Shown in pieces: positions 16,296-49,932 of a DNA stretch of 64,000 nt. A model generated the notes under the pieces. The model worked only from the letters and a program-made list of their open reading frames with translations. It was not told the origin of the DNA and did no database searches. Each line of letters begins with the position of its first letter. Within the stretch, counting starts at the first letter, position 1. The translations under genes and the position numbers were made by a program. Source of the stretch: Arenicellales bacterium (GTDB lineage Bacteria; Pseudomonadota; Gammaproteobacteria; Arenicellales; CBDCFT01); contig OZ244198.1 in NCBI GenBank assembly GCA_965216735.1, positions 4,725,628 through 4,789,627 of the forward strand, given 5' to 3'.

Positions 16296-16316
16296 GCCCA
16301 GGAATGAATAACACGT

Positions 16317-23428: not shown

Positions 23429-23801
23429 TACTGCAATTACGCAGATACTAAATGCAATATTATGGTTATATTTGTATTTCTGCAGCATATATAATTTTTC
23501 CTGCATTTTAAAGTGTTGACATAAGTCGTTCTGGCAACGCTACCGCTTTCGGGAAAAGTCAAGTAGTAAAAGTGGCGCGTTGTTAGGTTTTTGTAAACAG
23601 AACTGACGCGGGGGTGTCATGACGAAGGGCGTTTTTATCACTTGGTGGGGCGGTTATTGTCTGCCAAACGTAAGACCAAACACGATTCGTTTCTGAGTCA
23701 AACATCAGTGAGACATCACCATCCATGTAAACAAAATGTTACAGGTTGCATTAGTTTATGTGGATGTCAACTAGCTCATAGACCAATTTTAAGGGGACTA
23801 A

Positions 23802-24341: not shown

Positions 24342-24349
24342 CTTGATCA

Positions 24350-26761: not shown

Positions 26762-26765
26762 CGCT

Positions 26766-27989: not shown

Positions 27990-28004
27990 ACAAAGGACAC
28001 TCTG

Positions 28005-28412: not shown

Positions 28413-28482
28413 TGGGTTTGCTATATAATGAAGGTTTTACTCCGTCCTGAGAAGGCGGGGAATTCAAACCTTAGAGATTAAT

Positions 28483-29013
28483 ATGACCCAACTCACCCCG
28501 GGCAACGCTGTGCCCGAATTAAAAGTGAAAACTTTAGATGGATCCGTTTGGAATCTATCAGAGCAAACACCTGAGCATTTTACGATTGTTGTCTTTTACA
28601 GAGGACTACATTGCCCGATATGCGCTAGCTATTTACCTGACATAGAAAGCCGCGTTCGCGCATTTCGGGGGCTCGGTGTTGAAATCATCGCTGTCAGCAG
28701 TGACGGTGAAGCACGCGCTAGAAGTATTAAAGAGGAACTTGGCCTCGATGAATTGACGATAGGCTACGACTTGAGTATAGAAACGGCTAGAGACTGGGGG
28801 CTATACGTTTCTCAGGGAATTGGTAAAAGTTCAAAAGGAATTGAAGAACCCAATCTTTTTATTGAGCCGGGCATTTTCATTATACGACCCGATCAGACAC
28901 TTTATTCCTGTGTTGTTCAAAGCATGCCATTTGCAAGACCGCAGTTTTCGGAAACCCTCGATGCAGTTCAGTTTATTATTACCAACCGCTATCCGGCACG
29001 TGGTGAAGCATAA
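28483..29013 (+). CDS. peroxiredoxin-like (AhpC/TSA-redoxin family) protein
   Basis: FTIVVFYRGLHCPICASYL is a thioredoxin-fold CxxC region typical of peroxiredoxin-like proteins. Confidence 0.7.
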   Translation: MTQLTPGNAVPELKVKTLDGSVWNLSEQTPEHFTIVVFYRGLHCPICASYLPDIESRVRAFRGLGVEIIAVSSDGEARARSIKEELGLDELTIGYDLSIETARDWGLYVSQGIGKSSKGIEEPNLFIEPGIFIIRPDQTLYSCVVQSMPFARPQFSETLDAVQFIITNRYPARGEA

Positions 29014-29513
29014 TAGCGAGCCGATGAATCTTGATAATGGTGCGGCGAACGGGGGCTACAATAAAACCAAACACTCATTGAATTCCACGCCCTGCGGGGA
29101 GAAAGGTCATGCTCTTACTCCTTAAGAACCCTGCTCGGAGGGTCCAATTAACAATTGTTTACATTCCGAATCGCTTGTTGGATTGTGACAAACTGTTTGT
29201 CTAGTGTATAACTAGTCGTGTCCCCGTTTGGGGGGGACAACTTACACAAAGTGTATTGATCGTGTTTTGATCATCGCTTTTTTGGGGGTCTAAATAGCTG
29301 TTGTCTTATTTGGGGTAGGCCAACACTATTTGATTTCGGAAACACGGGGTAAGTTGCGTAGTAGAGCTGCGCAACGGAACTGATTCAATTCCGTATGACA
29401 CGCGGAACTGAATTGGTATTGGGGTAACTCGAATAGTTTAGCCTTCACGTTGCGCGTAACTGGTTTTGATTTGTCAAAGCGGCAAATCTATTTTGGCATT
29501 TGTGGGGGTACAT

Positions 29514-31193
29514 ATGTGTACATGTAATTCTAGAGTTGGAAGGGGGCTATTTTCTTCTCTTTTCCTTACGTTTTTGATGTTTGTGGGAACGATCCAAGCG
29601 CAAGAAGTCGCAAATCCTGATTTGGTTCAATCTTGTGGATTGGATATCGCCCTTGTTCTTGACGAGTCAGGTTCTATTCAGGACCAAAACGCGATTAACG
29701 CCGTTAGGCAAGCCTCGAAATCTTTCGTTGGAGCGCTGAGTGGCACTGGTTCCAGTGTGTCTATTGTTGAATTTAATACCCGTGCAAGAACGGTACTTCC
29801 GTTAACAGAAGTCACGGACAGCTCCATGCAATCTTTTTACGATTACATTGATGCGACTTCGGGTAATCCAGACACTGGATACGATCCCTCGGTTTATACC
29901 AACATGGAACGTGGTACAAACTGGGAAGACGCATTTCGTACAACAGCGAGTAACCAATCCACTCCGTTACTGGTTTTTGTAACTGACGGTGATCCAACAT
30001 TCTGGCTGGTGGATCCGGACAATACGGCAATAGGTGGCGTTGGCTATGACACAGGGAATAACAATGCGGACTCTGCAAACCAGGCGACACCGGTAGCAAA
30101 CGCTATTAAACAAAACGGAACCCATATCTTGATGATAGGTGTGGGCCCGGGTCTTTCTGGTGCCGTACAACAAGGTCGGTTGATGCAAGTATCGGGACCG
30201 GATCTGGTTACGGATTTAACCAGTTTTGATCTAGCTACCACGGATGTTATGGTTGTTTCGGATTTTGCGTCTTCGTTATCGGCCGTTCTCCGGCAAATCG
30301 TTGTATCGCTTTGCGCACCATCCATCACTTTTCAGAAGTTGGCCAAAGATATTGGTGAAAGCGCTTATTCGGTAGAAAGTGGTTGGACCTTTTCGGGTAC
30401 TGTCCAAACGAATGACGGTACTCCCGTTGAATGGATTACGCCGAATGCAGGCAGCACAGCCGCCGAACAATCCGGCCAAACCGATGAAAACGGAGAAATC
30501 ACTTTTCATTGGGTAGCGGACAGCGACGTTGCCTTTACCTGGGACGAAGATTTACAAGACTTTTCCTTTGTGGATGGCCAATGTTCGAAACGGACATTCG
30601 AAAGCGACGGTCATGTGGATTCAACATTCGCCACCATCCCACTGGAAACTTTCGTCGTATCCGACAGTGACTATATCTCTTGTGTGGTGAGGAACGAACG
30701 ACACATTGTGGTCAACACTTGTGACGACGGAAAACCCGCTGGACTCGTGTTTCGTTACGACGGCTCAGGTGCTGAAGATGACACCAATTCGCAACTCACC
30801 AACGAATTAATCGTGGAGGGTGATCCGATGTCAATGGACCCGGTGTTTATTGAAGTCTTCGATCACAAAGGTGTTGTACTATTCGCCGGCACGGTGGGTT
30901 TAAATGACACTTTTCAAGTCTCGGGCACCAAACGGCTCATTCCACCCCGTATGCGCTTCTTAGTGTATGACGCGGAAGGTGGCAGCGTGTTGCAAACGGT
31001 GCAGTTCCATACCTCGTGTTCGCAACCCTTGAATACGGGCGATTCCTTTGGTTCTATCGTACTAGTGGGTGAGACCCAGGTTTCTTCCGGTGGCAATCCA
31101 GGCAAGCCAAATAATGGCGATGGTGACAAGCCGGAAAACCCCGGTAAATCAAAAGGCAAGAAACTCGGTAAGGACAAAGGAAAAAAATCCTAG
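29514..31193 (+). CDS. secreted von Willebrand factor A (vWA) domain protein with a Lys/Gly-rich C-terminal tail
   Basis: Signal MCTCNSRVGRGLFSSLFLTFLMFVGTIQAQE. MIDAS DIALVLDESGSI. The C-terminus is GGNPGKPNNGDGDKPENPGKSKGKKLGKDKGKKS. The ORF track start at 29466 is less likely. Confidence 0.75.
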   Translation: MCTCNSRVGRGLFSSLFLTFLMFVGTIQAQEVANPDLVQSCGLDIALVLDESGSIQDQNAINAVRQASKSFVGALSGTGSSVSIVEFNTRARTVLPLTEVTDSSMQSFYDYIDATSGNPDTGYDPSVYTNMERGTNWEDAFRTTASNQSTPLLVFVTDGDPTFWLVDPDNTAIGGVGYDTGNNNADSANQATPVANAIKQNGTHILMIGVGPGLSGAVQQGRLMQVSGPDLVTDLTSFDLATTDVMVVSDFASSLSAVLRQIVVSLCAPSITFQKLAKDIGESAYSVESGWTFSGTVQTNDGTPVEWITPNAGSTAAEQSGQTDENGEITFHWVADSDVAFTWDEDLQDFSFVDGQCSKRTFESDGHVDSTFATIPLETFVVSDSDYISCVVRNERHIVVNTCDDGKPAGLVFRYDGSGAEDDTNSQLTNELIVEGDPMSMDPVFIEVFDHKGVVLFAGTVGLNDTFQVSGTKRLIPPRMRFLVYDAEGGSVLQTVQFHTSCSQPLNTGDSFGSIVLVGETQVSSGGNPGKPNNGDGDKPENPGKSKGKKLGKDKGKKS

Positions 31194-31650
31194 CGCGAGT
31201 AACTTTACACGGAATACTTGCCAGCTAATTACTGTGTAGGGGAACTGTTCCAAAGGACTGGATCGCAAACGGGTGGGAATCGGGCAGTGGATGCCCGGTT
31301 CCCACTTTTTTTGCAACCAGGGTCCTAAGATAAGACAGGGGAGCATGTATCCAAGGGATCCAAATAATCGGTGTTGAAAATGACGTTTTGGTCTACGACG
31401 CACCAAGTTGAAGGTGGCGATGACAACTTACAAGGATTATTTGAGTCAAATTTTTCAATGATAAGACAGCATTTTCATACTTGCTCCTGCCACCAACCAA
31501 GAAAATGCGAAGCGACTCAAAGCGTTCGGTAATGAGACAATGCAACGCACAAATCGCCAAAACCACTAAGTACGAAGCTTGTATAACAGATCTGCCACCG
31601 TGTTTTAACGTGCGGTTCATTTCCCTAAATTCACCCATGGTGACGTGTCT

Positions 31651-31689
31651 TGTGAACTATCACACAATGATTGTGTGATGCAGTTCACA
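31651..31689. promoter_or_regulatory. tandem CRP-like sites (TGTGA-ACTATC-ACACA and perfect TGTGA-TGCAGT-TCACA), 23 bp centre to centre
   Basis: Read directly. The architecture and flanks match the pair at 14705-14743. TAAATT at 31711-31716 sits at class II spacing. Confidence 0.55.
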
Positions 31690-31722
31690 GTTTCCCCCTT
31701 TGTATCTTGTTAAATTGAAACA

Positions 31723-31851
31723 ATGTTTTGGCAAGAGCAACGATAGGGGCGTTGTTAAGGAAACAGAGTTTAGGACTATGGGGAGTTTCTAAACTCGAGT
31801 TTTTACAAGGAGATATTGAAAACCCCCATCTAGGGACAGGTGGGGGTTTTT
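31723..31851 (+). ncRNA. candidate small RNA (about 130 nt), from the predicted CRP-dependent start to an intrinsic terminator
   Basis: No ORF longer than 8 codons with an RBS. It is bounded by a promoter-like element and the hairpin plus T-run at 31819-31851. The 5' end is predicted only from spacing. Confidence 0.35.
31819..31851 (+). terminator. rho-independent terminator (A-tract / stem / T-tract, potentially bidirectional)
   Basis: aaaACCCCCAtctagggacaggTGGGGGTtttt: a 7-bp GC-rich stem flanked by a 3-nt A-run and a 4-nt T-run. Confidence 0.75.
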
Positions 31852-32230
31852 ATCTATCTCGAGGTTACTGAACCTCGGACATGCTTTCAGAAGCATGCCA
31901 TGATCAAAAACACGTTGTCACGCGATGGCCGCGGTCGATGAGGCCATTGATGTAAAAATACGGCTCGTCAATTTCCGTACGAGTGTTCAAGAACAGACGG
32001 TGGTGGTGAACAACCTTTACGCTGTTGTTGGAATGGCGGAGCGATTTACTCACCGGCAACACACATAAACGCAAGCCTTGGATGTCCACGTTACACTGCT
32101 TGGACTATGTTCATCGTCCAAGCCCGATTGTGTGAATTCGTGATTGCCATCAAGCACCAGTGGATGGCACACTGTACGGTGACGTCGTTGCGTTGATCTT
32201 TTTATTATCAACTTAAGGGAGACACAAAGG

Positions 32231-32779
32231 GTGAGAAAACAAAAAAAATCGAGTAATGCACGTAGAAAATTACTTAAACTAGCTTCGTACGGTACATTGG
32301 GTGCCACTACAGTCCCGGCAACATGGGTAAAGCCGATCATTGACGTGGTGGTTCTACCGGCGCACGCACAAACCACGGGACCCGTTGATCCAACTAACCC
32401 GACTAATCCAACTAATCCGACTAATCCAACGACCCCACCACCGACGACACCGGCACCGAATCAGTGCACTGTCTCGACCATACCGGCCGCATCAATTGGT
32501 GCATGCCCGACGTCGCCCAACATTCAGGCAGCGTGTACAGTCGATTTAAATATTTCCGGTTGCGAGCCATTTGCATCGGTCGACGGACAATGGATTTGCA
32601 ATGGATCCAACGTAGGTGCCTATGGAAGTTTCACGCTCGATGCGAATGGTGGGTTATCGGTGACACGGCCGTATCCGGGTGTGCATGGTGGACGCTGTTG
32701 CGAACTGGTGATTGATATCAATGGTCAGGTTTTTCGCGACCTGTTTTTTGTGGCAGACGGGGGTAGTTGCCAAATATAG
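32231..32779 (+). CDS. P2: Tat-like-leader family protein with (PTN)n linker and a 9-Cys C-terminal domain
   Basis: GTG start preceded by taAGGGAGac. NARRKLLKLASYGTLGATTVPATWVKPIIDVVVLPAHAQTT leader, then PTNPTNPTNPTNPTTPPPTTPAP, then a Cys-rich domain. Confidence 0.7.
   Translation: MRKQKKSSNARRKLLKLASYGTLGATTVPATWVKPIIDVVVLPAHAQTTGPVDPTNPTNPTNPTNPTTPPPTTPAPNQCTVSTIPAASIGACPTSPNIQAACTVDLNISGCEPFASVDGQWICNGSNVGAYGSFTLDANGGLSVTRPYPGVHGGRCCELVIDINGQVFRDLFFVADGGSCQI
32390..32434 (+). repeat. in-frame 9-bp tandem repeat (ccRacWaaY, about 4.5 copies) encoding (PTN)n in P2
   Basis: ccaactaac ccgactaat ccaactaat ccgactaat ccaacgacc, read directly. Confidence 0.9.
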
Positions 32780-32929
32780 CATCGGTGTGCGCTTCGAACG
32801 TGCAGTTTGCACTATTCGTTGGCGTTGTTTGACGCAATAATCTGCAAGCCGTCAATTGAACGGAGCGCATACCCCAACACTATCTCCAAAAATACTTGGA
32901 TTAGAGAACCGATGCGTGACGGTAGCGTC

Positions 32930-33583
32930 TCACCGAACAGGTAGCTGATTTTCGGCATTCTTCGAGTATCCGTAACAATCGAAGTCCGCTTCGAAAAGCT
33001 GGCGTACGATTTCAGTTGTCGTTTCGTCGTAGTATTCCGCTATCTCACGGTCATCCCTCATCGGATGCCGGTAAGTATTGAATTGGGGGAAGCGACGGTT
33101 TATGTGTAATGCCGACGCGACAGGTCGAATTGCATATGGAAGCCGTTCGAAGTGGGCCACATAATCGCAGATATCTACTCCATCGAGTTGGGTGTAGCAC
33201 ACTTGTGGTAGGTAATGCGATCCCTTCTGGTGGGCGGCGGCGGTAGCTAGCTCGGGTAGCGACAGGACGAAATTTCTGAAATTTCCAAACCGCTGCACGT
33301 GATGATCGTATAAGTAGTAATAAACTGAAACTAGACGCGAAAAAGGATTTCGCACGACGGTAAACTTGTAGTAACTATCAAATATATCACTGCCCAATTT
33401 ACGTTGAATAACTTTTGCTGTAGCGTGTTGTAAATAGATACCCTCTTCAGGGTCCCAGCCAAATAAGGAATCGTGATCGGCCACTCTATGGTCGCGTTTT
33501 TCATCCCGTAACCAGCGCTCCACCGAAACACCGGCTGTCTTTCCAATATGAAAGTAGATACATTTATGTTCGTGAAAAACCAT
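32930..33583 (-). CDS. sulfotransferase-family protein (PAPS-dependent type)
   Basis: FHIGKTAGVSVERWL resembles the 5'-PSB loop (hIPKTGGTS). FTVVRNPFSRLVSVYYY resembles the RNPxxRxxS 3'-PB motif. Confidence 0.7.
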   Translation of the reverse strand: MVFHEHKCIYFHIGKTAGVSVERWLRDEKRDHRVADHDSLFGWDPEEGIYLQHATAKVIQRKLGSDIFDSYYKFTVVRNPFSRLVSVYYYLYDHHVQRFGNFRNFVLSLPELATAAAHQKGSHYLPQVCYTQLDGVDICDYVAHFERLPYAIRPVASALHINRRFPQFNTYRHPMRDDREIAEYYDETTTEIVRQLFEADFDCYGYSKNAENQLPVR

Positions 33584-33668: not shown

Positions 33669-33941
33669 ATGAATAAAAGCGATATTCCCGTGATTGCCGG
33701 CGACTACCGTCTGGAGGAATTCGATGGCGAACTCTTGTTGTATCACCCGGCGACGACGAGAACCTTACATATGAACGACTCGGCGTCGCTCATCTGGAAC
33801 CTGTGTGATGGAAAGCGAACAATTCAAGATATTGTGACTACTCTCGCCGAAGCGTATCCCGAATCCGCTGAAAGCATTGAGAACGATGTAACGCAGACAA
33901 TTAAAAATCTTTTTGACAATGGCGTTTTATCCCTCGACTAA
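33669..33941 (+). CDS. PqqD-family protein (RiPP recognition element, RRE)
   Basis: 90 aa. ...EFDGELLLYHPATTRTLHMNDSASLIWNLCDGKRTIQDIVTTLAEAYPESAESIENDVTQTIKNLFDNGVL matches the PqqD pattern throughout. Confidence 0.8.
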   Translation: MNKSDIPVIAGDYRLEEFDGELLLYHPATTRTLHMNDSASLIWNLCDGKRTIQDIVTTLAEAYPESAESIENDVTQTIKNLFDNGVLSLD

Positions 33942-33950: not shown

Positions 33951-35795
33951 ATGAAGACGTGGTACGTTGAGTTCGGGGGTCATTCGGCCGCCATTCAATA
34001 CGAAGACAATTCCGTCGCCGATCTTCTTGAATTTCTGTTCGTAGACCTTCCTGCAACTTCTGCAATTACTCCGGTAGAAACCTTTCGAATCATGGCGGAC
34101 CCGTCATGGAAACACTGTGAATTGCGTTGGAGTGATGGCCATAGCACCCGTGTGAATTCTCGTTGTGAATTGGCGCTCCAAGTCGTATCCGAAGTTCTTT
34201 TTACATTGATCAATAAATGTAGGGGAGGTCACATAATTCATGCCGCGGCCGTGCACAAAGATAACATGGGTATCTTGATGCCGGGCAAAAGCGGTGCTGG
34301 AAAATCGACTCTATGTGCATGGTTCGTAAAAAACGGCTATACATATCTGACAGACGAAGCGATTTGTTTTCCAACGGGGCAGTCGCGATTTCATTCTTTT
34401 ACACGTCCAATTCATTTTAAGCCGGGTTCTACCTCCGCTCTGAATACATTGTTGAGCGGTGAGAATATCAATGATTTATCTGAAACAGATGGTCATACGA
34501 AGATTGTTCCGCACCGTAGCTTAAATGAAAATTGGAAAAGCGCGGTTCCAGATGTGTGTTTACTGTTATTTCCGGAGTATGCAACCGACCATGACTTCAG
34601 CTTGGAACCTCTTAAACCCGCGCAAGCGAGCATGGCGCTCATGGGTGTGCATGCCAATGCCCGTAATTTAGAACACCATGGGTTTCATGAGATTACTAAC
34701 ATCGCGCGATCAACACCCGCCTTTCGATTATGCTACAGCGATTACACCCAACTCGAAAATAGACTTGATTTATTGGTAGAGCTTGTCTTGGAACGATCCG
34801 CCGATGCCACGCATTTGGTGGAATTATTCCGTTCGATGCAAACCCATCGTGTCATAGATATTCCTTCGAAACAGGAGACAACCGAAAAAGCCACCCACCC
34901 CATACCGGAGCCAACGAAATCCGGTTCCAAGAAAAAACTATGTCTAGGCATGGCTACGTATGACGACTACGACGGTGTTTACTTTTCCGTTCAAGCCATT
35001 CGTATGTTTCATCCCGAAATAACCCAAGACACCGAGATTTTGGTAATCGATAATAATCCGACAGGGGCTTGCAGTCTGGCATTGAAGAAGCTCGACGGTT
35101 CAATAAAGGGTTACCGCTATATGCCCAATGCGAATGTTCAAGGTACCGCAATCAGGGATTTGGTTTTCCAATATGCCAATGCCGACTATGTTTTGTGCAT
35201 GGACTCCCATGTGTTTCTAGAGCCCGGTGCTATCTGCAAATTCATCGATTACTTGGATCAACATCCTGACTGCATGGATTTACTACAAGGCCCCATGTTG
35301 TATGACGACCAATCTACGGTGATGACGCATTTTGAACCGCAATGGCGCCAGGGTATGTACGGTACTTGGGCGCACGACGAACGCGGACAAGACAAAGACA
35401 ACCCACCGTTTGACATTCCCATGCAAGGATTGGGTTTGTTTGGTTGTCGAAAACAGGCGTGGTTAGGATTCAACAAACACTTTCGTGGATTTGGTGGTGA
35501 AGAGGGATATATTCACGAAAAGTTTCGTCAAGCAGGGCGTCAAACCTTGTGTCTACCTTTTCTACGTTGGCTGCATCGTTTCGAACGCCCTAATGGTGTT
35601 CCCTACCGACTTAAATGGGAAGACCGCATATATAACTACTGGGTGGGATTTAGCGAATTGAGTATGGACCCGGCGCCGATGATCGAACATTTTCGTGGTC
35701 ACCTGGGCAAACAAGTGACGGATAATATCTTGGCTGATATCCAGGCGGTCTTTAAAGAAAAAGCAATATTAAAACAAAACATTCCATCAAAATGA
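33951..35795 (+). CDS. fusion protein: N-terminal HPr-kinase-like P-loop domain plus C-terminal family-2-type glycosyltransferase domain
   Basis: IIHAAAVHKDNMGILMPGKSGAGKSTLCAWFVKNGYTYLTDE is the HprK-like Walker A region (nt 34284-34310). From about aa 328, KKLCLGMATYDDYDGVYFSVQAIRM ... ILVIDNNP ... YVLCMDSHVF is a GT-A fold with a D-S-H metal motif at nt 35202-35210. Confidence 0.75.
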   Translation: MKTWYVEFGGHSAAIQYEDNSVADLLEFLFVDLPATSAITPVETFRIMADPSWKHCELRWSDGHSTRVNSRCELALQVVSEVLFTLINKCRGGHIIHAAAVHKDNMGILMPGKSGAGKSTLCAWFVKNGYTYLTDEAICFPTGQSRFHSFTRPIHFKPGSTSALNTLLSGENINDLSETDGHTKIVPHRSLNENWKSAVPDVCLLLFPEYATDHDFSLEPLKPAQASMALMGVHANARNLEHHGFHEITNIARSTPAFRLCYSDYTQLENRLDLLVELVLERSADATHLVELFRSMQTHRVIDIPSKQETTEKATHPIPEPTKSGSKKKLCLGMATYDDYDGVYFSVQAIRMFHPEITQDTEILVIDNNPTGACSLALKKLDGSIKGYRYMPNANVQGTAIRDLVFQYANADYVLCMDSHVFLEPGAICKFIDYLDQHPDCMDLLQGPMLYDDQSTVMTHFEPQWRQGMYGTWAHDERGQDKDNPPFDIPMQGLGLFGCRKQAWLGFNKHFRGFGGEEGYIHEKFRQAGRQTLCLPFLRWLHRFERPNGVPYRLKWEDRIYNYWVGFSELSMDPAPMIEHFRGHLGKQVTDNILADIQAVFKEKAILKQNIPSK

Positions 35796-36310
35796 GTATT
35801 AGACGTCTTTTCATTACCCGACTCATCGGAATGCTCAGCGCCATTCCGATCTTGGGTAACGCCTCACTGCGCGCAAATACCGCTATTGCGGATTCCCCCA
35901 GCTCGGTACAAGATCAATTCCGAATTCTCGTCGACACCTGTGTGCCTCGGGACGACTATCCGGGCGCTGTCGACGAGGGAATCGATAGAAAACTATTGAG
36001 CGAAATTTCGGCGAACCCGATTCATTTGAAACGCGTACACGATTTGCTAATTGATATTGATAAACTGTCGCGTAGTCAATTCAAACAGGTTTTTGTCGAT
36101 CTCGAGTTGTCTAATCGTACCCGTCTACTAGATAGACTATTGAATGATAAAACACTGGTTCCTGACCAACGTGCAGAATTAAGTTACCTACGTGCACGTG
36201 TACTGCAACTGTTTTATACCTCCGAATCCGGATTTGCCATGCTGGATTACCATCCACCCAGTCATGGCGGTTACCCGGACTACGCAAAACCCTTAGATCA
36301 ACTAAGCTAA
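35792..36310 (+). CDS. Tat-signal small subunit (gluconate 2-dehydrogenase subunit-3-like) partnering the GMC flavoprotein
   Basis: MSIRRLFITRLIGMLSAIPILGNASLRANTAIA is a twin-arginine signal. 172 aa. The ATGA overlap with the upstream gene implies translational coupling. It lies directly upstream of the GMC oxidoreductase. Confidence 0.6.
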   Translation: MSIRRLFITRLIGMLSAIPILGNASLRANTAIADSPSSVQDQFRILVDTCVPRDDYPGAVDEGIDRKLLSEISANPIHLKRVHDLLIDIDKLSRSQFKQVFVDLELSNRTRLLDRLLNDKTLVPDQRAELSYLRARVLQLFYTSESGFAMLDYHPPSHGGYPDYAKPLDQLS

Positions 36311-36315
36311 AGCGA

Positions 36316-37956
36316 ATGCCGCAACCTGATTACGATGCCATCGTCATCGGTGCGGGCGCGGGCGGTGGATTCGCGGCGATGGCCCTGGCCGAACGTGGTG
36401 CGAAAGTATTGTCAATCGAACGCGGCAAACGTTTCAATTACAAAACCGACTATCCCATGAACTATCCTGACTGGGAATCGCGTTTGCATCCGTTGTCCAG
36501 TGTTGTGGAAACGTTTCAGCCTGTCGCTACACCGGAAATAGCCAAAACCGATAGCGACATTTGTTCCCGAATCACCGGGTCCCCATCACCACACGCACCT
36601 GGACGACGCGGACAGTTTCAGTATTTACGTTCTATCGGCGTGGGCGGATCCACCTTGCACTATCAAGGGGAAGCACACCGCTTTCCAAGCCACGCTTTTA
36701 GGTCGAAAACCCTATTTGGTTGGGGTGAAGACTGGCCCTTGTTCTATACCGAGTTGGAACCGTACTACGACCAGGTGGAAAAAATCCTGGGCGTCGCCGG
36801 GAATCCGGGTAATCCTTTTAAGGATAAACGTGGAGCATTTCCAACCCCTACCCACTCGTTATCCACCAAAAGCCAGCTCGTCGAGTTTGGCACAAAAAAA
36901 TTGGGTTGGTCGTTACTGCCGAATACGTTGGCGTTGCCCAGCCGCTCTATCGACAACCGTATGCCGTGTCAACATTCCGGCGGTTGTGTTCAAGGTTGTA
37001 TTTTCGGTGCCAAATCCAGTGTCGATCAAACCGCCATCGTGCATGGCGAAAAAACCGGAAACCTGACCGTGTTACCCGAAGCGCGGGTGGTGCAACTGGA
37101 GACGAATAAGAAAGGGGGTGTGACCGGTGTTGTGCTGGTACACAATAAAAAACGTCGACGCATTAGTGCACACAAGTACTTCCTTGCCTTGGGTGCGATT
37201 GAAACGCCTCGTTTGTTGTTGGCCAGTGCATCGAGCTCCCATCCGAATGGTATTGGCAATGCGCACGATCAGGTAGGTCGTTATCTTATGGAAACCATCA
37301 TAGCCAGCATGGAAATATTGGTCGAACAACCGGTGCATGCATACAAAGGCCCGCCCATCGACGCACGTATCTGGGATTTCAATTACCCATCAAAAGATTC
37401 CCGTGTGCGTTCGGGCTATGTATTGGGAGTGTCTGGCACATCGGCAGGCCCCCACGGACCGGTGTCTTACGCGAATAGTGTCCAGGGATTGGGTTTAGAA
37501 CACAAACGGAAGGTGCGTGACATCTTTGGCCGCAATGTCCAACTGTTCGGCATCGCGGAACACATGCCCCACTACGATAATCGATTAAGGCTAGGTGACA
37601 AGAAAGACGCCGATGGCGTGCCACTGGTAACCGTATTCAGCGACTACTCATTCGATGATCGCGAAACACTACGCGAAATGATCAATAAAATCGATACCTT
37701 GGCAGATGCTTGTGGTTTTTTAAACAAAGTGCGTTTGCATTCGAGCTACGACTCTCCATCTTCCACCCATGTCGCCGGCACCTGCCGTATGGGCAGTGAT
37801 CCGGAAAAAGCAGTAACCGATGAGTTGGGCAAAGTGTTTGGCGTCGGCAATCTTTACATTACCGACGCCAGCGTCTTACCGAGTCAGGGAGCGGGCGATT
37901 CCCCGTCCCTGACTATTCAAGCCTTGGCGTTACGAACAGTTCGAATGTTGTCGTGA
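36316..37956 (+). CDS. GMC-family FAD oxidoreductase (no signal peptide of its own)
   Basis: YDAIVIGAGAGGGFAAMALAERGAKV FAD motif. C-terminal GTCRMGSDPEKAVTDELGKVFGVGNLYITDASVLP GMC signature. Confidence 0.85.
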   Translation: MPQPDYDAIVIGAGAGGGFAAMALAERGAKVLSIERGKRFNYKTDYPMNYPDWESRLHPLSSVVETFQPVATPEIAKTDSDICSRITGSPSPHAPGRRGQFQYLRSIGVGGSTLHYQGEAHRFPSHAFRSKTLFGWGEDWPLFYTELEPYYDQVEKILGVAGNPGNPFKDKRGAFPTPTHSLSTKSQLVEFGTKKLGWSLLPNTLALPSRSIDNRMPCQHSGGCVQGCIFGAKSSVDQTAIVHGEKTGNLTVLPEARVVQLETNKKGGVTGVVLVHNKKRRRISAHKYFLALGAIETPRLLLASASSSHPNGIGNAHDQVGRYLMETIIASMEILVEQPVHAYKGPPIDARIWDFNYPSKDSRVRSGYVLGVSGTSAGPHGPVSYANSVQGLGLEHKRKVRDIFGRNVQLFGIAEHMPHYDNRLRLGDKKDADGVPLVTVFSDYSFDDRETLREMINKIDTLADACGFLNKVRLHSSYDSPSSTHVAGTCRMGSDPEKAVTDELGKVFGVGNLYITDASVLPSQGAGDSPSLTIQALALRTVRMLS

Positions 37957-37990: not shown

Positions 37991-38614
37991 TTAAAGGGAG
38001 CAAAATGGCTCACTTGGGCACCCGCTCCCTACCGATAGTGTTCCAGAACTAGCGTAAGTCCCGGACAACGTGAAATCCGCGCCACTCGCTGAAACGCTAT
38101 TAACGGCGATGGATTCCATGCCAAGAATGCAGTTATTGACGTCGACCATGTCCACGGCGCCACCACCCACCACGCCACTTGCGGTGAGGAACGAACCATT
38201 GCCCAGCACTGCCAACGTTGCCGTGAAGTTCGTGCCGTTTACCTCAATACACATGTCAGCAGAATCCTGCGGCAATCCACCGGCATACGCATTTGGAATG
38301 ACTGTATCCAGGATGGTGGCGTATAAACCTTCTTGCGGTTGATCGATACTATTAATAGGAGTTATGGTGACGGAGAACTGACCTCTGAAATTGATGATTG
38401 GCAATGTCGTAGTTGGCGCGGGTGTGGTAGGCACCACGGTGGTTTGCGCATGAGCAGGCAGTATCACACTGTCCACCACCGGTTTGGTCCATTTGGTCGG
38501 TAGTGTTTGGCTGGCCGCAACAGCGGCACCGCTACCGACTAAGAGTCTCTTTAACGCTTTGCGTCGTGCTGTCGGTTGCTCCGGTGGTTGTGATGAATCA
38601 AACGCTTGTTTCAT
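37991..38614 (-). CDS. P3: Tat-like-leader family secreted protein, 4-Cys beta-rich domain
   Basis: I chose the start at MKQAFDSS (ATG 38614) because AAGGAGAA lies upstream and it aligns with P4. Leader TARRKALKRLLVGSGAAVAASQTLPTKWTKPVVDSVILPAHAQTTVVPTTPAPTTT. Confidence 0.75.
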   Translation of the reverse strand: MKQAFDSSQPPEQPTARRKALKRLLVGSGAAVAASQTLPTKWTKPVVDSVILPAHAQTTVVPTTPAPTTTLPIINFRGQFSVTITPINSIDQPQEGLYATILDTVIPNAYAGGLPQDSADMCIEVNGTNFTATLAVLGNGSFLTASGVVGGGAVDMVDVNNCILGMESIAVNSVSASGADFTLSGTYASSGTLSVGSGCPSEPFCSL

Positions 38615-38822
38615 AAGATTTCTCCTTTTCTTCAGTGCGGTTTTAATCAAACCTCGGTGATATCGTAGCTTCATTCATTGCTAAATTTACCGATTTAGGG
38701 TGCCGATGATTCCGATTCTCCGTCTGTCTATCCAATCGCCAACGTTAGCGATAGTGAGCAAAATGTAGAGCATGAACCATGGCTAAAATTGTTGTTTCGT
38801 GTCATAAGGTCAATACTCGTTC

Positions 38823-39452
38823 TTAAGTAAAGATTGGGATACAGTTTCCCGGATCACTGGGGCAACCGTTACCGGTTGGCAGCATTCCGCTAGCGGTAAA
38901 GAAACCGGACATCGTGAAATCCGCTCCACCGGGTGACACGCTATTCACCGAAAGAAATGTGTCGGATACTTCACAAGCGTTCGGGTTGTCCATAATCACT
39001 GGACCTCCACCTACAGTGCCACTGGCGGTCAAGAAAATGGGATCAGTAGCAGTAGGACGAGTAAAGTCAAATCTCACAGCCGCGGTGAAACTGGTACCGT
39101 CCACTGCAATACACATGTCACCGGATTGTGTCGAAGTACCAGCGTGTGCTTTTGGAACGATTGAATCCAGTATGGCAAACAGGCTTTCTGGCTCGTTATT
39201 AATTGTTACTATAGCGTTTGCTGAAACAGGACCCCTGAAATTGATTACTGGTGCCGCCGTCGTAGTGGGCACCACGGTGGTTTGCGCATGCGCCGGTAGT
39301 ATCACACTGTCCACCACTGGTTTGGTCCACTTGGTCGGTAGTGTTTGGCTGGCCGCGACAGCAGCACCGCTACCGACTAAGAGTTTCTTTAACGCTTTTC
39401 GCCGCGCCGTCGGTTGCTCCGGCGGTTGTGATAAATCAAACGTTTGTTTCAT
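38823..39452 (-). CDS. P4: Tat-like-leader family secreted protein
   Basis: The leader differs from P3 at 3 residues out of about 62. The mature part is diverged but keeps 4 Cys (DMCIAV, NACEVS, GNGCPSDPGNC). Confidence 0.75.
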   Translation of the reverse strand: MKQTFDLSQPPEQPTARRKALKKLLVGSGAAVAASQTLPTKWTKPVVDSVILPAHAQTTVVPTTTAAPVINFRGPVSANAIVTINNEPESLFAILDSIVPKAHAGTSTQSGDMCIAVDGTSFTAAVRFDFTRPTATDPIFLTASGTVGGGPVIMDNPNACEVSDTFLSVNSVSPGGADFTMSGFFTASGMLPTGNGCPSDPGNCIPIFT

Positions 39453-39625
39453 AAGGTTTCCCCTTCTCGTCGATAATATTCTTAATCAAAACTTGGTTAC
39501 GTCATGATTTTATGGACTACGCTTTAGTGATTCCCGAAAAATATATGATAGCTTTGTTTGTTCCATACCGCTCAAGTCCTCAGATAGGTAGGGGTATTTG
39601 TAGGAACTAGGTGCTAAGCTGATGT

Positions 39626-40240
39626 TTATTCGCAACCAACGAAAGGATCAGTGGGACAACCGCTACCGACCGGTAATACACCACTCGCGTTGAAGAGACC
39701 CGATAGCGTGTAGTCGGCACCAGCGGTTGATGCACTATTGACCGACAGATCTGTTGGGGTAGAGCGACACCCATCGACATCGGTCATGGTGACTGAACCA
39801 CCCCCTACTATGCCACTCGCTGTAAAAATATCAGTATCAACTACTAGTGTTGCGGTGAAGCTGGTGCCATTGACTTCAATGCACATGTCTGCGGGTCTCT
39901 GAGTGAATCCACCGGCGTGCGCATTGGGAATGACCGTATCCAGGATGGTGGCGTACAAACCTTCTTGCGGTTGGTCGATACTATTAATAATAGGATTGTT
40001 TTGTTGGCCAGCAGTAAATTGACCTCTGAAATTTTGCATAAACACCGTTGTGGTAGGCACCACGGTGGTTTGTGCATGAGCCGGTAATATCACACTGTCC
40101 ACTACCGGTTTGGTCCATTTTGTGGGTAAGGCGTGACTGGCGGCTACTGCGGCGCCGCCACCGACTAACAACTTTTTTAAAGCCTTTCGCCGAGTAGGTG
40201 TGTGGTCTTTGGATACGACTTGGTTTTCTGATGAACTCAT
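39626..40240 (-). CDS. P5: Tat-like-leader family secreted protein
   Basis: I chose the start at MSSSENQ (GGGAGG upstream). Leader TRRKALKKLLVGGGAAVAASHALPTKWTKPVVDSVILPAHAQTT. The mature domain is close to P6. Confidence 0.75.
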   Translation of the reverse strand: MSSSENQVVSKDHTPTRRKALKKLLVGGGAAVAASHALPTKWTKPVVDSVILPAHAQTTVVPTTTVFMQNFRGQFTAGQQNNPIINSIDQPQEGLYATILDTVIPNAHAGGFTQRPADMCIEVNGTSFTATLVVDTDIFTASGIVGGGSVTMTDVDGCRSTPTDLSVNSASTAGADYTLSGLFNASGVLPVGSGCPTDPFVGCE

Positions 40241-40508
40241 CAACGGCCTCCCATTCATGAAATTTTGATGTTTCTACTCAACCACTTATGAGATATGTAT
40301 CATAAATATTATCAAATAGCCACAAAACAACATTGTTCGTACTAAGGTTTATTAATATTAGATATTATTAATAAAACACAAATCTATATACCGGCCGATA
40401 CCGTTAGATGACATGAATGACTGTTACAGGAAACTTTTTTTGGTGGACGTCATAGTACGCTGACAAATGTCAGAGGCGGAAACCGAATTCCCAAATCGAG
40501 CCCCACTG

Positions 40509-40586
40509 CGTTTGGGACATGATCCAGAAAAAGCGATGGTGACTGAATTCGGCAAGGTGTTCGGCGTCGGTAACCTTTTTATTTCT
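40509..40586 (+). pseudogene. remnant of the 3' end of a second GMC oxidoreductase gene
   Basis: It translates to RLGHDPEKAMVTEFGKVFGVGNLFIS, versus CRMGSDPEKAVTDELGKVFGVGNLYIT at the C-terminus of 36316..37956. There is no upstream ORF. The position relative to P6 mirrors that of the intact GMC gene relative to P3. Confidence 0.65.
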
Positions 40587-40621
40587 CAATTTAGGTATGG
40601 GTGACGGGGCTAAGCTATTGT

Positions 40622-41197
40622 TTAATCACAACCAACAATAGGATCAGTCGGACAACCGCTACCTGCCGGCAACATACCACTCGTGCTGTAAAAACCCGAT
40701 AACGTGTAGTCGGCACCAGCGGATGATGCACTATTGACAGTCAACTCTGTTGGCACAGAAGTACACCCATCGACATCGGTCAAGGTAACCGGACCTCCGC
40801 CGACCGTACCACTCGCCGTGAATAAAATATCATTGTTTACTAACAGTGTTGCGGTGAAACTGGTGCCATTGACTTCAATACACATGTCGGCCGGTGACAT
40901 ACGAAATCCGGCATGCGCTTTTGGAATTACCGTATCCAGGATGGTGGCGTATAAACCTTCTTGCGGTTGGTCGATGCTACCAAAGTTTATGTCAACGGAG
41001 AACTGGCCCCTGAAATTTTGCATAAACACCGTTGTGGTAGGCACCACGGTGGTTTGTGCATGAGCCGGCAGTAGGACACTGTCCACCACCGGTTTGGTCC
41101 ATGTGGCCGGTAGCTGGGTTGCACCGACCACACCCCCCGCCAAGCCCAACAACGCCCTACGACGTGCCGTCGGAATACGCTGTTTATCTTCTTGCAT
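40622..41197 (-). CDS. P6: Tat-like-leader family secreted protein
   Basis: I chose the start at MQEDKQRIP (GGAGACGGAGAG upstream). Leader TARRRALLGLAGGVVGATQLPATWTKPVVDSVLLPAHAQTT. The ORF extends to 41260. Confidence 0.75.
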   Translation of the reverse strand: MQEDKQRIPTARRRALLGLAGGVVGATQLPATWTKPVVDSVLLPAHAQTTVVPTTTVFMQNFRGQFSVDINFGSIDQPQEGLYATILDTVIPKAHAGFRMSPADMCIEVNGTSFTATLLVNNDILFTASGTVGGGPVTLTDVDGCTSVPTELTVNSASSAGADYTLSGFYSTSGMLPAGSGCPTDPIVGCD

Positions 41198-41376: not shown

Positions 41377-42534
41377 ATGACCCATTTGGGCTATAATTTA
41401 AGTGTAAAACTGCGGGGACTAAGCCATATGGTGGAACGATCACAGGAGGACAAAGTATCGGCCGAGATTGTCGAGAGGATTTACCGCGACATTTCTACCC
41501 TCGATCTGCCTGATTTACTTAAACAAATAGCGAGTCTCATCGGCGTCGCTGAAGTCGCCATCTACACCGCGCCGCCCGGTTCAGAACAATTCCAGTCTGT
41601 CATTGGCGGATGTATTGAAGACAGCGTTCATCAACAATATGTCGATACGTATCAGCACGGTGACGTCCAAATACAACGACTGTTGCGTACTAAACATATC
41701 GATTTTCTAACTGGGGAAGATCTAACGACTTTTGAAGAACTCAAACATTGTTGTGTCCACAATGATTACCTAAGACCGAACGGTATTGATTCACAACTGG
41801 TCTACGCAATGCATGGGGAGCATGGTCATAGGCGGACGTTCGTCGCTATGAGGGAGTGCGAGGCCGGACCTTATCAGGATTGGCAAATCGCTCTATTCAA
41901 GGCGATCGCAGGAAAAATCAAAGACAGTCTTAACCTGCGCGATACGATACACCAACTTCACTTCGATAATACTATATCTAACCTAGTACTGGAGAGCGCA
42001 AGCGTCGGACTTGCTGTGTTGAATGATGAGTTTGTTCCTGTTTATGTAAACGAGGTGTTTCGTAATATCGTAAAACAAACGAAATGTCTCGATCTACAAA
42101 ACGGTCGCATCCGCTGCAACAATGAATACGACAAAACGCTGACACAGTTACTTCAAAATGCAATGATTGGTCAATCTGGCAGTATGTGTCTACAAAGAAA
42201 CGGCACAATGACTAGATTAGAAGTCACTCGGTTTATCGATTCATTTGACGAAGATTTATTGTTTTCATCTGATGCTCGAATTCTCTTGTTACTGCGGCAA
42301 GAACGAGCGATAAAAAAGTTTGATCTTGTTGCGATTAAACATCACTTGGGTATTTCACATGCCGAATCACGGCTTGTTTTTCACCTCGTAAATGGAGGCA
42401 CGATCAATAGCTACGCCACTCAGTGGCGCGTCAGTACGCACACAGCCAGAAACCAACTGAAATCGGTTTTTAACAAGACAGGACTTCATTCACAAAAAGA
42501 GTTGGTAGCCAAGATATATCTTGATCTTGGTTGA
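41377..42534 (+). CDS. LuxR-family (C-terminal HTH) transcriptional regulator with an uncharacterised N-terminal sensory region
   Basis: C-terminal HLGISHAESRLVFHLVNGGTINSYATQWRVSTHTARNQLKSVFNKTGLHSQKELV is a GerE/LuxR-type HTH. An alternative start exists at 41428. Divergent from P6. Confidence 0.7.
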   Translation: MTHLGYNLSVKLRGLSHMVERSQEDKVSAEIVERIYRDISTLDLPDLLKQIASLIGVAEVAIYTAPPGSEQFQSVIGGCIEDSVHQQYVDTYQHGDVQIQRLLRTKHIDFLTGEDLTTFEELKHCCVHNDYLRPNGIDSQLVYAMHGEHGHRRTFVAMRECEAGPYQDWQIALFKAIAGKIKDSLNLRDTIHQLHFDNTISNLVLESASVGLAVLNDEFVPVYVNEVFRNIVKQTKCLDLQNGRIRCNNEYDKTLTQLLQNAMIGQSGSMCLQRNGTMTRLEVTRFIDSFDEDLLFSSDARILLLLRQERAIKKFDLVAIKHHLGISHAESRLVFHLVNGGTINSYATQWRVSTHTARNQLKSVFNKTGLHSQKELVAKIYLDLG

Positions 42535-48426: not shown

Positions 48427-49932
48427 TTGCCAAGAACCAGTAATCCTAACGTGACCGGTCGCTTTGCAAGGAGTTTTATAAAAAGAATATTGTCGCGTTT
48501 GGGTGTGAGTGTAAAGCGATCGCCTGGCCAATTCGAACTGTTAATTGAAAGTAACTCTGCCAGGCAGTTGTCGATCGTTGAGTCAGAAAAATTCGCGCCC
48601 TGTTCCGGGGTTTCAACGCTCTCGCGAATCAACCTGGACAAACAAGGTGGATCCCTTGCCACGCTGGGAACAAAAAAAGCGATCGACATAACATTATCCG
48701 GCGAATCAATCGCAGTTGTTGAAACGGGTAGCTGGTGCTGGCCTGCCCACTTGCAGAACGGCGTGCGTACTGCGCGTGTTTCACACCCAACGGAAGGACG
48801 GGAACGGCGGGTGATAGTTGATTTTCGCAGTAGGGCAGAAAAACACTTTGCCAATCTATTCGTCGATTCAATCGGTCAGGCAATAATGGCAATTTTTTTG
48901 ATGGGAAAGGAAAATGGCAAGGCGTTTGCAAAGGGCTGGGTTTACGATCCACATCGGCAACCCGGCGCAGACGGATTTCGATTGAATAATCAAACAGCCG
49001 ACATTGTGTTGACCACATCACAACCCGGTTGGGAAACACATCTCGGACCCGTGTTTTCGTATTTCAGTATGAAGGGAGAAGAACATTTTACTTTTTTCGA
49101 TGCTAAGGTTACGGCAAAAGGGTCGGCTATTGAACCGGTAGTAGTCGAATACAATAGCACGCCGGAAGGCCTGTTTGACCGTTGCCGTTTCGGCTATGTC
49201 GAGGATAACCTGCCAATGCCCCGGGGTGAAACGTTTAAACGCGTATCGGGAAACCCTAATCCGTTTACCTTTCGACTGTCAGGCTATTCCGCTTCTTTGG
49301 TCTTACGCGATATCGTTCGACATTATCTCGACAAATCTGTAGCGGAGTTAAGTCGTGTACTCGATTGGGGTTGCGGGTGCGGGCGGGTGTCCCGTCATTT
49401 CCGTGACGATGCTGGGAGAACTCATTGGTGTGGTGCGGACATCGATGAGATAGGCGTTCAATGGGCACAGGAAAATCTGCCTTTTGGTCATTTCCATCAT
49501 ATAAAGCCGTTGGAAAAAACGCCTTATCCGGATAATCACTTCGAACTTATTTTTGGAATTTCGGTATTTACCCATTTACGCGAAGCAGATCATTTATTCT
49601 GGTTGCAGGAACTCGCCCGTATTTTGGCTCCCGCTGGAATTGTGGCGGTGAGTATCGCTGGAAAGACGTTGCGAGCGCGGTTGTTTACAACAGACATCAA
49701 CGAACTCACCAACGACCTCATCGCGGGATACACCGATCATGGCCGCAGCGACGCCATCGATGGAAGCACGAGCGATATTGAGTATTACCGCAGCACGTTT
49801 ATATCAGAAGACTATGTTAGGACAGTGTGGAGCCGCTACTTCGATGTCCTGGATATTCATCCGGGGCTAATCGGATGCCGACAGGATTTGGTCGTCATGG
49901 GCAAGAAACCTGCGCACCAAGATTGCGATTAA
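48427..49932 (+). CDS. class I SAM-dependent methyltransferase with a long uncharacterised N-terminal region
   Basis: VLDWGCGCGRVSRHF (motif I) and ELIFGISVFTHL in the C-terminal third. The start is uncertain. Confidence 0.6.
   Translation: MPRTSNPNVTGRFARSFIKRILSRLGVSVKRSPGQFELLIESNSARQLSIVESEKFAPCSGVSTLSRINLDKQGGSLATLGTKKAIDITLSGESIAVVETGSWCWPAHLQNGVRTARVSHPTEGRERRVIVDFRSRAEKHFANLFVDSIGQAIMAIFLMGKENGKAFAKGWVYDPHRQPGADGFRLNNQTADIVLTTSQPGWETHLGPVFSYFSMKGEEHFTFFDAKVTAKGSAIEPVVVEYNSTPEGLFDRCRFGYVEDNLPMPRGETFKRVSGNPNPFTFRLSGYSASLVLRDIVRHYLDKSVAELSRVLDWGCGCGRVSRHFRDDAGRTHWCGADIDEIGVQWAQENLPFGHFHHIKPLEKTPYPDNHFELIFGISVFTHLREADHLFWLQELARILAPAGIVAVSIAGKTLRARLFTTDINELTNDLIAGYTDHGRSDAIDGSTSDIEYYRSTFISEDYVRTVWSRYFDVLDIHPGLIGCRQDLVVMGKKPAHQDCD

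Follow-up and report, generated by a model that had tools for sequence, protein, structure and literature searches.

A portable Tat-like leader with an extended conserved segment heads unrelated proteins of Arenicellales and lies near PqqD-domain genes

Introduction

We analysed a stretch of 64,000 nucleotides from an Arenicellales bacterium (contig OZ244198.1, positions 4,725,628 to 4,789,627; the whole stretch is called the window here), which encodes six proteins, P1 to P6, that begin with a common leader of about 50 residues and continue into different C-terminal parts, the payloads. The leader consists of a basic motif, RRKxLK, a Gly/Ala-rich hydrophobic region (h-region) and the segment LPxxWxKPxxDSVxLPAHA↓QTT, in which the arrow marks a candidate cleavage site. 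We report that this leader is a portable module of a large and widespread family with features of a twin-arginine translocation (Tat) signal, and that its genes lie non-randomly next to genes for PqqD-domain proteins and other protein-modifying enzymes. The segment in front of the cleavage site may in addition dock PqqD-type recognition elements (RREs), the domains that hold the leaders of peptides made on ribosomes and modified after translation (RiPPs).

Results

Six leader genes in the window

A preliminary description of this DNA had claimed a common N-terminal module for six genes, and this was borne out by the six open reading frames (ORFs) listed here and by the invariant positions in their alignments.

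20636 to 20911, reverse strand: P1, 91 aa; leader, residues 1-53 (20753-20911); mature part, a 38-aa Thr/Pro/Ala mucin-like tail
32231 to 32779, forward strand: P2, 182 aa; leader, residues 1-46 (32231-32368), then a PTN/TP-rich linker and an 8-Cys domain
37991 to 38614, reverse strand: P3, main payload family; start at M21 of the longest ORF; leader 38447-38614
38823 to 39452, reverse strand: P4; leader 39285-39452; mature domain modelled as an 8-stranded beta-barrel with 4 Cys
39626 to 40240, reverse strand: P5; leader 40073-40240; the sole one of the six to reach the TIGR01409 TAT_signal cutoff
40622 to 41197, reverse strand: P6; leader 41057-41197

A Shine-Dalgarno-like (GGAG-like) site lies upstream of the likely start codon in all six genes, and a Thr/Pro-rich stretch stands directly C-terminal to the leader in all six proteins. 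Across the alignments of P1 to P6 the residues RR, L, P, W, P, D, V and LPAHAQTT do not vary. The payloads had been described as absent in P1, a 9-Cys domain in P2 and a 4-Cys domain in P3 to P6; the last part stands (a domain of ~145 residues), whereas P2 has eight cysteines and P1, which has the same sequence as database entry P0001, is not empty but ends in its 38-residue tail.

Comparison of the 21-codon leader core of P1 and P2 gave 4 identical, 11 synonymous and 6 non-synonymous codons. Because the codons differ mostly synonymously, the leader is conserved as protein and not as DNA, and a DNA repeat or gene conversion as the source of the shared leader was ruled out by this comparison. 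P3 to P6 are tandem paralogues, with leader cores that are 86-92% identical in DNA.

A large family of leaders

As the preliminary description had suggested, a profile of the six window leaders was used as query, and it uncovered a large family with genomic partners. A word-indexed search of 5.8 billion proteins matched 223 proteins, all of them short, with relatives at E values down to 1e-25. An exhaustive search of 1.84 billion representatives returned 4,370 cluster representatives at E<=1e-3 and 1,272 at E<=1e-10; these proteins have 50-345 residues, and the leader match is N-terminal in every case. The shared resemblance of the leaders is far above chance. In a scan of one genome per species we found 195 leader-encoding stretches, with several copies per genome, and the hosts were mostly Arenicellales, Arenicella and metagenome-assembled genomes (MAGs) of unclassified Gammaproteobacteria; the module is thus found chiefly in Arenicellales and their marine gammaproteobacterial relatives. 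Three loci (L003, L007 and L032) belong to a genome that is sister to that of the window organism, the contig of L003 being 93% identical.

The family consensus is MTDKKSSESRRKLLKSIAAGSGAIVAGKSLPESWSRPVVDSVMLPAHA↓QT[ST], with W-[TS]-[KR]-P-V-V-[DE]-S-V-x-L-P as its conserved core. We counted positional conservation in 355 leaders, numbered relative to the AHA↓Q site. Before the site, conservation was 92% for P-18, 100% for W-15, 90% for K/R-13, 97% for P-12, 78% for V-11, 80% for V-10, 86% for D/E-9, 82% for S-8, 94% for V-7 and 94% for L-5, and the three positions after it were Q in 86%, T in 89% and S or T in 100%. The leader-terminal P-x-H-A is present in 355 of 362 sequences; as this pattern was used for placing the site, A-1 is fixed by it.

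The preliminary description had said that its interpretation would fail if the motif were a common annotated domain, which it is not: models for the leader are absent from both Pfam and NCBIfam, and the six window proteins gave only sub-threshold matches to Tat-signal models, P5 excepted. Essentially no payload was annotated by these databases among 150 members. In the literature on the motif, on Arenicellales and Tat, and on RiPPs with Tat signals, we found no description of the leader family. The parts are known (a Tat signal, an RRE-recognised leader, an AxA site); what we could not find described is their fusion into one portable module, nor the scale of the family, its link to the PqqD/HprK-like/NTP_transf_5 and glycosyltransferase cassettes presented below, or its putative mucin-like peptide substrates.

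The N-terminal half resembles a Tat signal

The basic motif of the family has the consensus S-R-R-K-L-L-K, which fits the Tat pattern S/T-R-R-x-F-L-K. The twin arginine is present in 300 of 336 leaders (KR in 21), and its distance to the cleavage site is 39 residues (5-95% range, 36-40). The maximal 10-residue Kyte-Doolittle score of the h-region has a median of 1.85. Reference signals of E. coli reach 1.6-2.2 on the same score for Tat and 2.7-2.8 for Sec, so that by this measure the hydrophobicity of the leaders is within the Tat range. The c-region carries a basic residue (K/R-13) in 90% of the leaders, and A-3 is found in 92%. P5 scored 17.1 bits against TIGR01409 (cutoff 16.7) and is the only one of the six above the cutoff, and weak matches among 150 members were to TIGR02811 (104/150), TIGR01409 (53/150 at E<=0.1) and PF10518 (1/150). 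The claim of a Tat-like N-terminal part is thus upheld by the twin arginine, the hydrophobicity and the weak matches to two Tat-signal models.

The remainder of the leader departs from a Tat signal, since the conserved ~22 residues from the h-region to AHA do not make a short c-region. Signal peptidase requires small residues at -1 and -3 only. The Gluconate_2-dh3 small subunit encoded at 35792 carries an ordinary short Tat signal, MSIRRLFITRLIGMLSAIPILGNASLRANTAIA, which lacks the ~20-residue segment; Tat export in this organism thus does not generally call for the extra segment, and the earlier view that it exceeds what Tat and signal peptidase need is supported by this neighbour. A second cleavage site, AVA↓AS, had also been proposed; it occurs in P3 to P5 only, the family consensus there being A(I/V)VAGKSLP, and a retained pro-segment accordingly has no family-wide support.

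Two further likenesses were considered for the D-S-V part of the segment. A Bacteroidetes-type O-glycosylation sequon (D-S/T-hydrophobic) was rejected, as family members can have A, T or V where the Ser stands. DSVxLPA also resembles a TonB box, a likeness set aside for want of supporting context.

A possible parallel between the conserved core and the PqqA N-terminus

The N-terminal leader of PqqA is the part of this peptide that is assigned to PqqD binding (PMC10906245), and that of M. extorquens PqqA is given as MKWAAPIVSEICVGM (PMC12715619). Annotated PqqA peptides from plasmid records follow the pattern M(Q)W[TKVI][KA]P[ASE][FWY]xD[LIV]R[LIF]G.... The leader core resembles this N-terminus (W-[TKVI]-[KA]-P-x-[FWY]-x-D-[LIV]-R-[LIF]-G) as well as KWAAPIVSEICVG of M. 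extorquens, and common to both are a Trp, a basic residue, a Pro, a hydrophobic pair, an acidic residue and alternating hydrophobic residues, followed by Gly or Pro. With a hidden Markov model (HMM) of PqqA N-termini alone, leader ORFs made up 33 of the 50 top matches among 11,299 ORFs. The E-x-x-x-Y cross-link motif is absent from the six window proteins and from the family consensus. We regard the resemblance to PqqA as a good lead, which fits the gene adjacency described below, and not as proof.

Payloads are diverse

Removal of the leader left 287 payloads of at least 30 aa, which fell into 148 BLAST clusters, more than 100 of them singletons. The leader is therefore carried by otherwise unrelated payloads, as had been claimed, in at least 148 clusters, and a variable core on a near-invariant leader is also what RiPP precursors show. 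The mature parts range from 2 to 316 residues, with a median of 117 aa and the shortest tenth at <=17 aa; this median does not correspond to a RiPP core of tens of residues. The largest cluster, with 75-84 members, is of the P3-P6 type, and the second has 17 members with a Cys-rich domain of ~50 residues. Cysteines are even in number in 84% of the payloads of at least 60 aa.

Word-indexed searching with the P4 payload found only P4 itself and three paralogues, in the window genome and the sister genome. The main payload family was assembled locally, and 58 of its sequences went into an AlphaFold2 model of P4 (pLDDT 77.9), in which an eight-stranded barrel is predicted from about residue 70 onward. 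Structure comparison of the model revealed a weak resemblance to the barrels of NHBA, TbpB, VtrC and lipocalins. Another motif that hardly varies in the main payload family, (L/F)xxxxLDxLVPxAHAG, lies ~43 residues past the first AHA; in P4 it spans residues 90-105 (~39138-39185) and echoes VVDSVxLPAHAQ of the leader. A role of this motif as a pro-peptide cleavage site is disfavoured, as in the model it forms a helix and loop within the fold and is preceded by a confidently predicted strand.

Enzyme genes around the leader genes of the window

The genes near P2 to P6 are as follows.

32930 to 33583, reverse strand: sulfotransferase (PF03567), 151 bp away from P2; other genomes also have this family close to leader genes
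33669 to 33941, forward strand: PqqD-family RRE protein, 90 aa; best model TIGR03859, best solved relative 5SXY
33951 to 35795, forward strand: HprK-like kinase (residues ~89-273) fused to a GT2 glycosyltransferase (residues ~337-440)
35792 to 37956, forward strand: Gluconate_2-dh3 small subunit (with the Tat signal) and GMC flavoprotein
41377 to 42534, forward strand: LuxR-type regulator with a C-terminal helix-turn-helix; divergent from P6, conserved in the sister genome
42672 to 43841, reverse strand: NTP_transf_5 nucleotidyltransferase (PF14907), third member of the PqqD/HprK-like/NTP_transf_5 triad

These genes, P2 and P3 to P6 make up the content of the region from 32.2 to 43.8 kb, in which P3 to P6 sit between NTP_transf_5 and the other two members of the triad. 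The PqqD-like protein scored 48 bits against TIGR03859, the model for PqqD of the pyrroloquinoline quinone (PQQ) pathway (cutoff 46), and matched the structure of M. extorquens PqqD (5SXY) at E=3e-4; these scores place it closer to true PqqD of the PQQ pathway than to RREs of lasso or other types. Annotation of the window neighbours revealed no pqqB, pqqC or pqqE. P0264, a relative of the PqqD-like protein, bears the NCBI name 'PQQ biosynthesis peptide chaperone PqqD', which is probably a systematic mis-annotation, as the homologous window locus has no PQQ genes and barely passes the TIGR03859 cutoff.

PqqD-domain genes adjoin leader genes elsewhere

We examined two samples, ~1.4 Mb of leader-centred loci in all. 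The first comprised 75 genome loci, from which the enzyme families were chosen, and the second, independent one comprised 57 metagenome contigs with short flanks (mean 1.9 kb examined), for which the models were fixed beforehand. Protein-modifying genes lie within 1.5 kb of the leader gene in 15 of the 75 genome loci; PqqD, HprK-like or NTP_transf_5 genes were present at this distance in 7 of the 75 genome loci and in 7 of the 57 metagenome contigs. All seven PqqD-domain ORFs of the first sample are 60-1544 bp from a leader gene, and all seven of the second are at 0-1879 bp, five of them within 200 bp. Taken together, none of the 14 PqqD-domain ORFs is more than 1.9 kb away from a leader gene, and 8 are no further than 200 bp from one, an adjacency that is far above chance. 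The preliminary description had named a PqqD-like RRE, a pro-peptide protease and an export factor as possible partners of the segment; the RRE is favoured by this adjacency and by the PqqA-like core, whereas no protease or secretion gene recurs when neighbours are clustered.

The PqqD domain stands alone or is joined to GT2/GT25 or to a pyruvyl transferase (L002, L018, L054 and L077), and a fusion to a GlcNAc-transferase was also seen; PqqD-fused transferases with adjacent leader genes include those of L018, L054 and L141. The triad recurs directly beside the leader gene in five metagenome contigs (L093, L111, L113, L116 and L119), and the cassette of PqqD, HprK-like and NTP_transf_5 genes is found in the window, L080, L111, L113 and L119. 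On L080, a contig labelled Leptolinea sp. UBA5203 (Chloroflexota), the leader gene and the three cassette genes lie within 2 kb; its assignment to another phylum reflects either mis-binning or horizontal transfer of leader gene and triad together. One leader gene (L056) is flanked by genes for TPR-GT2-GT25 and TPR-GT2-phosphodiesterase proteins. In five contigs (L009, L031, L054, L064 and L110), genes for TTL-family ATP-grasp ligases are 0-200 bp from leader genes, which suggests that amino acids may be ligated onto leader proteins.

Four loci (L038, L040, L046 and L050) contain a eukaryote-like set with a 2-oxoglutarate-dependent prolyl hydroxylase, a PF11397 GlcNAc-transferase, an HPAT-like protein, an O-fucosyltransferase and sulfotransferases, which looks like a bacterial counterpart of eukaryotic hydroxyproline glycosylation. 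Of the leader peptides beside it, those of L038 and L040 have 106-109 aa and Pro/Ser/Thr-rich tails, whereas those of L046 and L050 have 73-95 aa and end in short tails rich in Gly. Leader peptides adjoining triads in L093, L111 and L119 are poly-Thr/Pro peptides. Mucin- or extensin-like examples beside triads or prolyl hydroxylase sets are QTTTPPDTTDTPQEPTTSAAPTTTTTTT..., APTPTGTTTTAAPTTTAAPTTT... and GGSPSPTPSVSPAPTPPPTDVPPP..., and P1 of the window is a peptide of the same kind.

Discussion

A dual leader is proposed

The reading that we prefer, for which we see about even chances, is that the leader would be dual: a Tat signal joined to an RRE docking site, which would guide cytoplasmic modification of the Thr/Pro-rich region and be removed at AHA↓Q. 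Its first part (n-region, S-R-R-K-L-L-K and the Gly/Ala-rich h-region) would be the Tat export signal. The second part, the ~20 residues L-P-x-x-W-[TS]-[KR]-P-V-V-[DE]-S-V-x-L-P, is a putative docking strand for PqqD-type RREs and also for TPR or other peptide-binding domains of the neighbouring enzymes, by analogy with PqqD holding the PqqA N-terminus (W-x-K-P-x-hydrophobic-x-D-L). Binding of LPTKWTKPVVDSVILPAHAQTT to the PqqD-like protein (33669-33941) is predicted by this proposal. Docking in the cytoplasm would set the HprK-like kinase, GT2/GT25, NTP_transf_5 and sulfotransferases, or in other genomes TTL ligases or a prolyl hydroxylase with hydroxyproline glycosyltransferases, on the region just downstream, namely the near-invariant Q-T-[ST] with the Thr/Pro-rich linker, and in short members the whole mucin-like tail. 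The modified protein would then be exported through Tat, and a signal-peptidase-type cut at L-P-A-H-A↓Q would take off the whole leader, docking site included. As in prochlorosin-type systems, a single enzyme set or a few of them would serve most members in trans. RRE binding, the chemistry of modification, the Tat route and the position of cleavage are steps that we infer.

Several observations weigh against this proposal. The alignment of the leader to PqqA by hhalign (register KWTKPVV to QWTKPAF, P=0.0047) covers seven columns and is short and statistically modest, and with the HMM of PqqA N-termini the median leader is only near the 98th percentile of the background. The AlphaFold2 model of P4 gives the leader no structure and leaves it disordered. 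A site behind a c-region of 22 residues would be unusually far from the h-region for signal peptidase I, and the even cysteine numbers of the payloads suggest oxidative folding outside the cytoplasm, which may fit Sec better than Tat. In the flanks examined, such an enzyme is lacking for about 80-85% of the leader genes, so that action in trans has to be assumed. Finally, NTP_transf_5/PqqD/HprK-like triads of Anaerolineales and other lineages (L083-L086) have no leader gene within 10 kb, nor any evident precursor close by. The kinase in these MAGs is HprK-like (ScmC-like) and the PqqD is ~50% identical to that of the window; in a reverse test from the PqqD side, no W-x-K-P peptides were found near these triads. 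The triad does not need the leader, because these relatives in other phyla sit without a leader gene.

Some of these points would be accommodated if the leader were a lineage-specific Tat (or Sec) signal with a long c-region and the enzymes read the Thr/Pro-rich payload and not the leader, the main alternative, which we consider possible but rather unlikely. The segment would then have been kept by the way in which the Arenicellales translocase or signal peptidase handles it, and the family would have grown by duplication and swapping of 5' ends. The Tat-like features are clear, most loci have no enzymes, PqqD triads elsewhere have no leader, and the AxA site with its fixed 39-residue distance from RR would fit a processing constraint. 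However, another protein in the same window uses a normal short Tat signal, signal peptidase does not need an invariant W-15, P-12, V-7 or S/T+3, and such a signal leaves unexplained why all PqqD-domain genes lie beside leader genes in both samples, whatever the payload type. Neighbouring cytoplasmic PqqD-domain enzymes are equally unaccounted for if the segment acts after export, as a retained pro-segment or as a sorting or anchoring signal for a partner in the periplasm or outer membrane (for instance a dedicated protease, a surface-display or a secretion factor) that cuts AHA↓Q. The near-invariant L-P-A-H-A-Q-T-[ST] is under tighter constraint than a signal-peptidase site, a similar LxDxLVPxAHAG recurs ~43 residues on in the main payload family, the fold of this family is weakly like the barrels of the surface lipoproteins NHBA and TbpB, and the even cysteine counts indicate extracytoplasmic proteins, all of which would suit such a role. 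We nevertheless hold it to be unlikely, as neighbour clustering revealed no recurring protease or secretion gene, the AVA↓AS site that a retained pro-segment requires is not conserved in the family, and the model puts the second AHAG within the folded domain. That the shared leader is merely a product of recent local duplication or of gene conversion between paralogues of the window, to which the similar DNA of the tandem P3 to P6 leader cores might point, is refuted by the mostly synonymous differences of P1 and P2 and by thousands of relatives with unrelated payloads in many genomes, and we give it next to no credence.

If the dual-leader proposal is correct, thousands of 'hypothetical' secreted proteins in a widespread marine and sponge-associated order would gain a searchable N-terminal signature. 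A RiPP-style recognition handle would be hidden in a general export signal, no dedicated leader protease or transporter would be needed, and Tat would take the place of Sec for modified cargo. PqqD/HprK-like/NTP_transf_5 cassettes would have candidate substrates, and there would be leads to bacterial mucin- or extensin-like glycopeptides, the genes of some of which adjoin eukaryote-type prolyl hydroxylase, hydroxyproline glycosyltransferase and O-fucosyltransferase genes. The leader could also serve as a portable tag for enzymatic modification, and then export, of arbitrary proteins. We put forward more tentatively a complete leader-guided pathway, in which the cassettes and transferases would recognise one PqqA-like motif in a Tat signal on more than 100 unrelated payloads, poly-Thr/Pro peptides of mucin- or extensin-like kind among them, carry out O- or phospho-glycosylation in the cytoplasm and let the products leave by Tat, with signal peptidase removing the leader. 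Such a pathway would be a new class of RiPP-like secreted glycoproteins, and the first substrate assignment for the orphan PqqD-kinase-nucleotidyltransferase cassette.

Comparison with known systems

A close parallel is PqqA-PqqD, in which a PqqD-family protein is likewise encoded beside peptide genes; the window PqqD best matches TIGR03859 and 5SXY, and the leader has a W-x-K-P-like core. In contrast to PqqA, the leader family lacks the E-x-x-x-Y core and the window lacks pqqB, pqqC and pqqE. The leader motif lies inside a Tat-type signal, whereas that of PqqA starts a peptide of 23-29 aa, payloads here reach 316 residues, and the partners are kinase-like proteins and glycosyl-, nucleotidyl- and sulfotransferases, while that of PqqA is a radical SAM enzyme.

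A Tat signal that is also bound by a cytoplasmic chaperone, which holds the substrate until it is finished, is known from the REMP systems DmsA-DmsD and TorA-TorD. REMPs are TorD/NapD-type proteins and serve cofactor insertion into single cognate enzymes; the E. coli DmsA leader ends in AHA. The RR motif, the weakly hydrophobic h-region and the AxA site are shared with these systems, as would be the second, cytoplasmic binding role proposed here, but the partner here is of PqqD type, one leader serves more than 100 payload types, and the c-region has ~22 residues. Nif11/NHLP (prochlorosin-type) precursors have no export signal, short peptide cores and GG-type sites that are cut by a C39 peptidase-transporter. 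A conserved leader, hypervariable C-terminal parts and a high copy number in each genome, with the majority of copies far from the enzyme, are common to both families; the leader described here differs in its putative export signal, its AHA↓Q end and its longer payloads.

The three-gene logic of the HPr-rel-A system (TIGR04352 kinase A, the TIGR04353 PqqD-related protein and NTP_transf_5) is found in the window, L080, L111, L113 and L119. Equivalog cutoffs are not reached (76-102 bits against 200 for HprK_rel_A, 25.4 bits against 35 for PqqD_rel_X), and the kinase here is often fused to GT2/GT25. To our knowledge, no substrate of the HPr-rel-A system has been described. Serine-rich-repeat adhesins are Gram-positive proteins that use the accessory Sec route (SecA2/Y2) with a KxYKxGKxW-type signal and no RRE. 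They resemble the leader proteins in having a long conserved signal region for a class of substrates and in cytoplasmic O-glycosylation of a Ser/Thr-rich region, as it is proposed here, and differ in their Gram-positive hosts, SecA2/Y2 route, KxYKxGKxW-type signal and lack of an RRE.

Tat tolerates folded or bulky cargo. The bufferins are MNIO-modified RiPPs with Sec signal peptides that are dispensable for modification, and the bufferin study argued that Sec is unsuited to bulky modifications (PMC11626156). As such cargo is argued there (PMC11626156) to be a poor Sec substrate, the use of Tat by the leader proteins would be plausible. Bufferins (PMC11626156) share with the leader proteins the small-protein precursors and a general-secretion signal and, as would hold under the proposal made here, signal peptidase as the leader protease and cytoplasmic modification before export, but use Sec and not Tat, a single payload family and other enzymes (MNIO/DUF2063).

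Further observations

Giant DUF7933-repeat proteins of 1,200-1,700 aa are encoded upstream of the leader gene in L025, L033, L041, L048 and L061, with 11 repeats in that of L033. In L033, L041 and L061 the leader gene beside the DUF7933 protein encodes a family with a mature Cys-rich domain of ~50 aa (CVTDTTVGGPL...CDLDLP). The Gluconate_2-dh3 and GMC pair of the window is also present in L016, L019, L024 and L003; in four independent genomes it stands at 35-660 bp from a leader gene whose payload is of the main family, and this periplasmic dehydrogenase may have the barrel-type payload as its partner or third subunit.

A sulfur-ester theme was noted in the window, with a protein containing an FGE-sulfatase domain (6877-9318), the sulfotransferase (32930-33583) and a bifunctional sulfate adenylyltransferase/adenosine phosphosulfate kinase (49929-51641) for supply of the sulfate donor 3'-phosphoadenosine-5'-phosphosulfate. 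In L081, a contig of a related MAG whose PqqD is 70% identical, genes for an aminotransferase and an M48 peptidase stand directly before the sulfotransferase-PqqD-HprK/GT2 genes. Relative to L081, the window has ~19 kb extra at 13354-32930, which hold two-component systems, LysR regulators, AhpC, a VWA-DUF7467 protein, P1 and P2.

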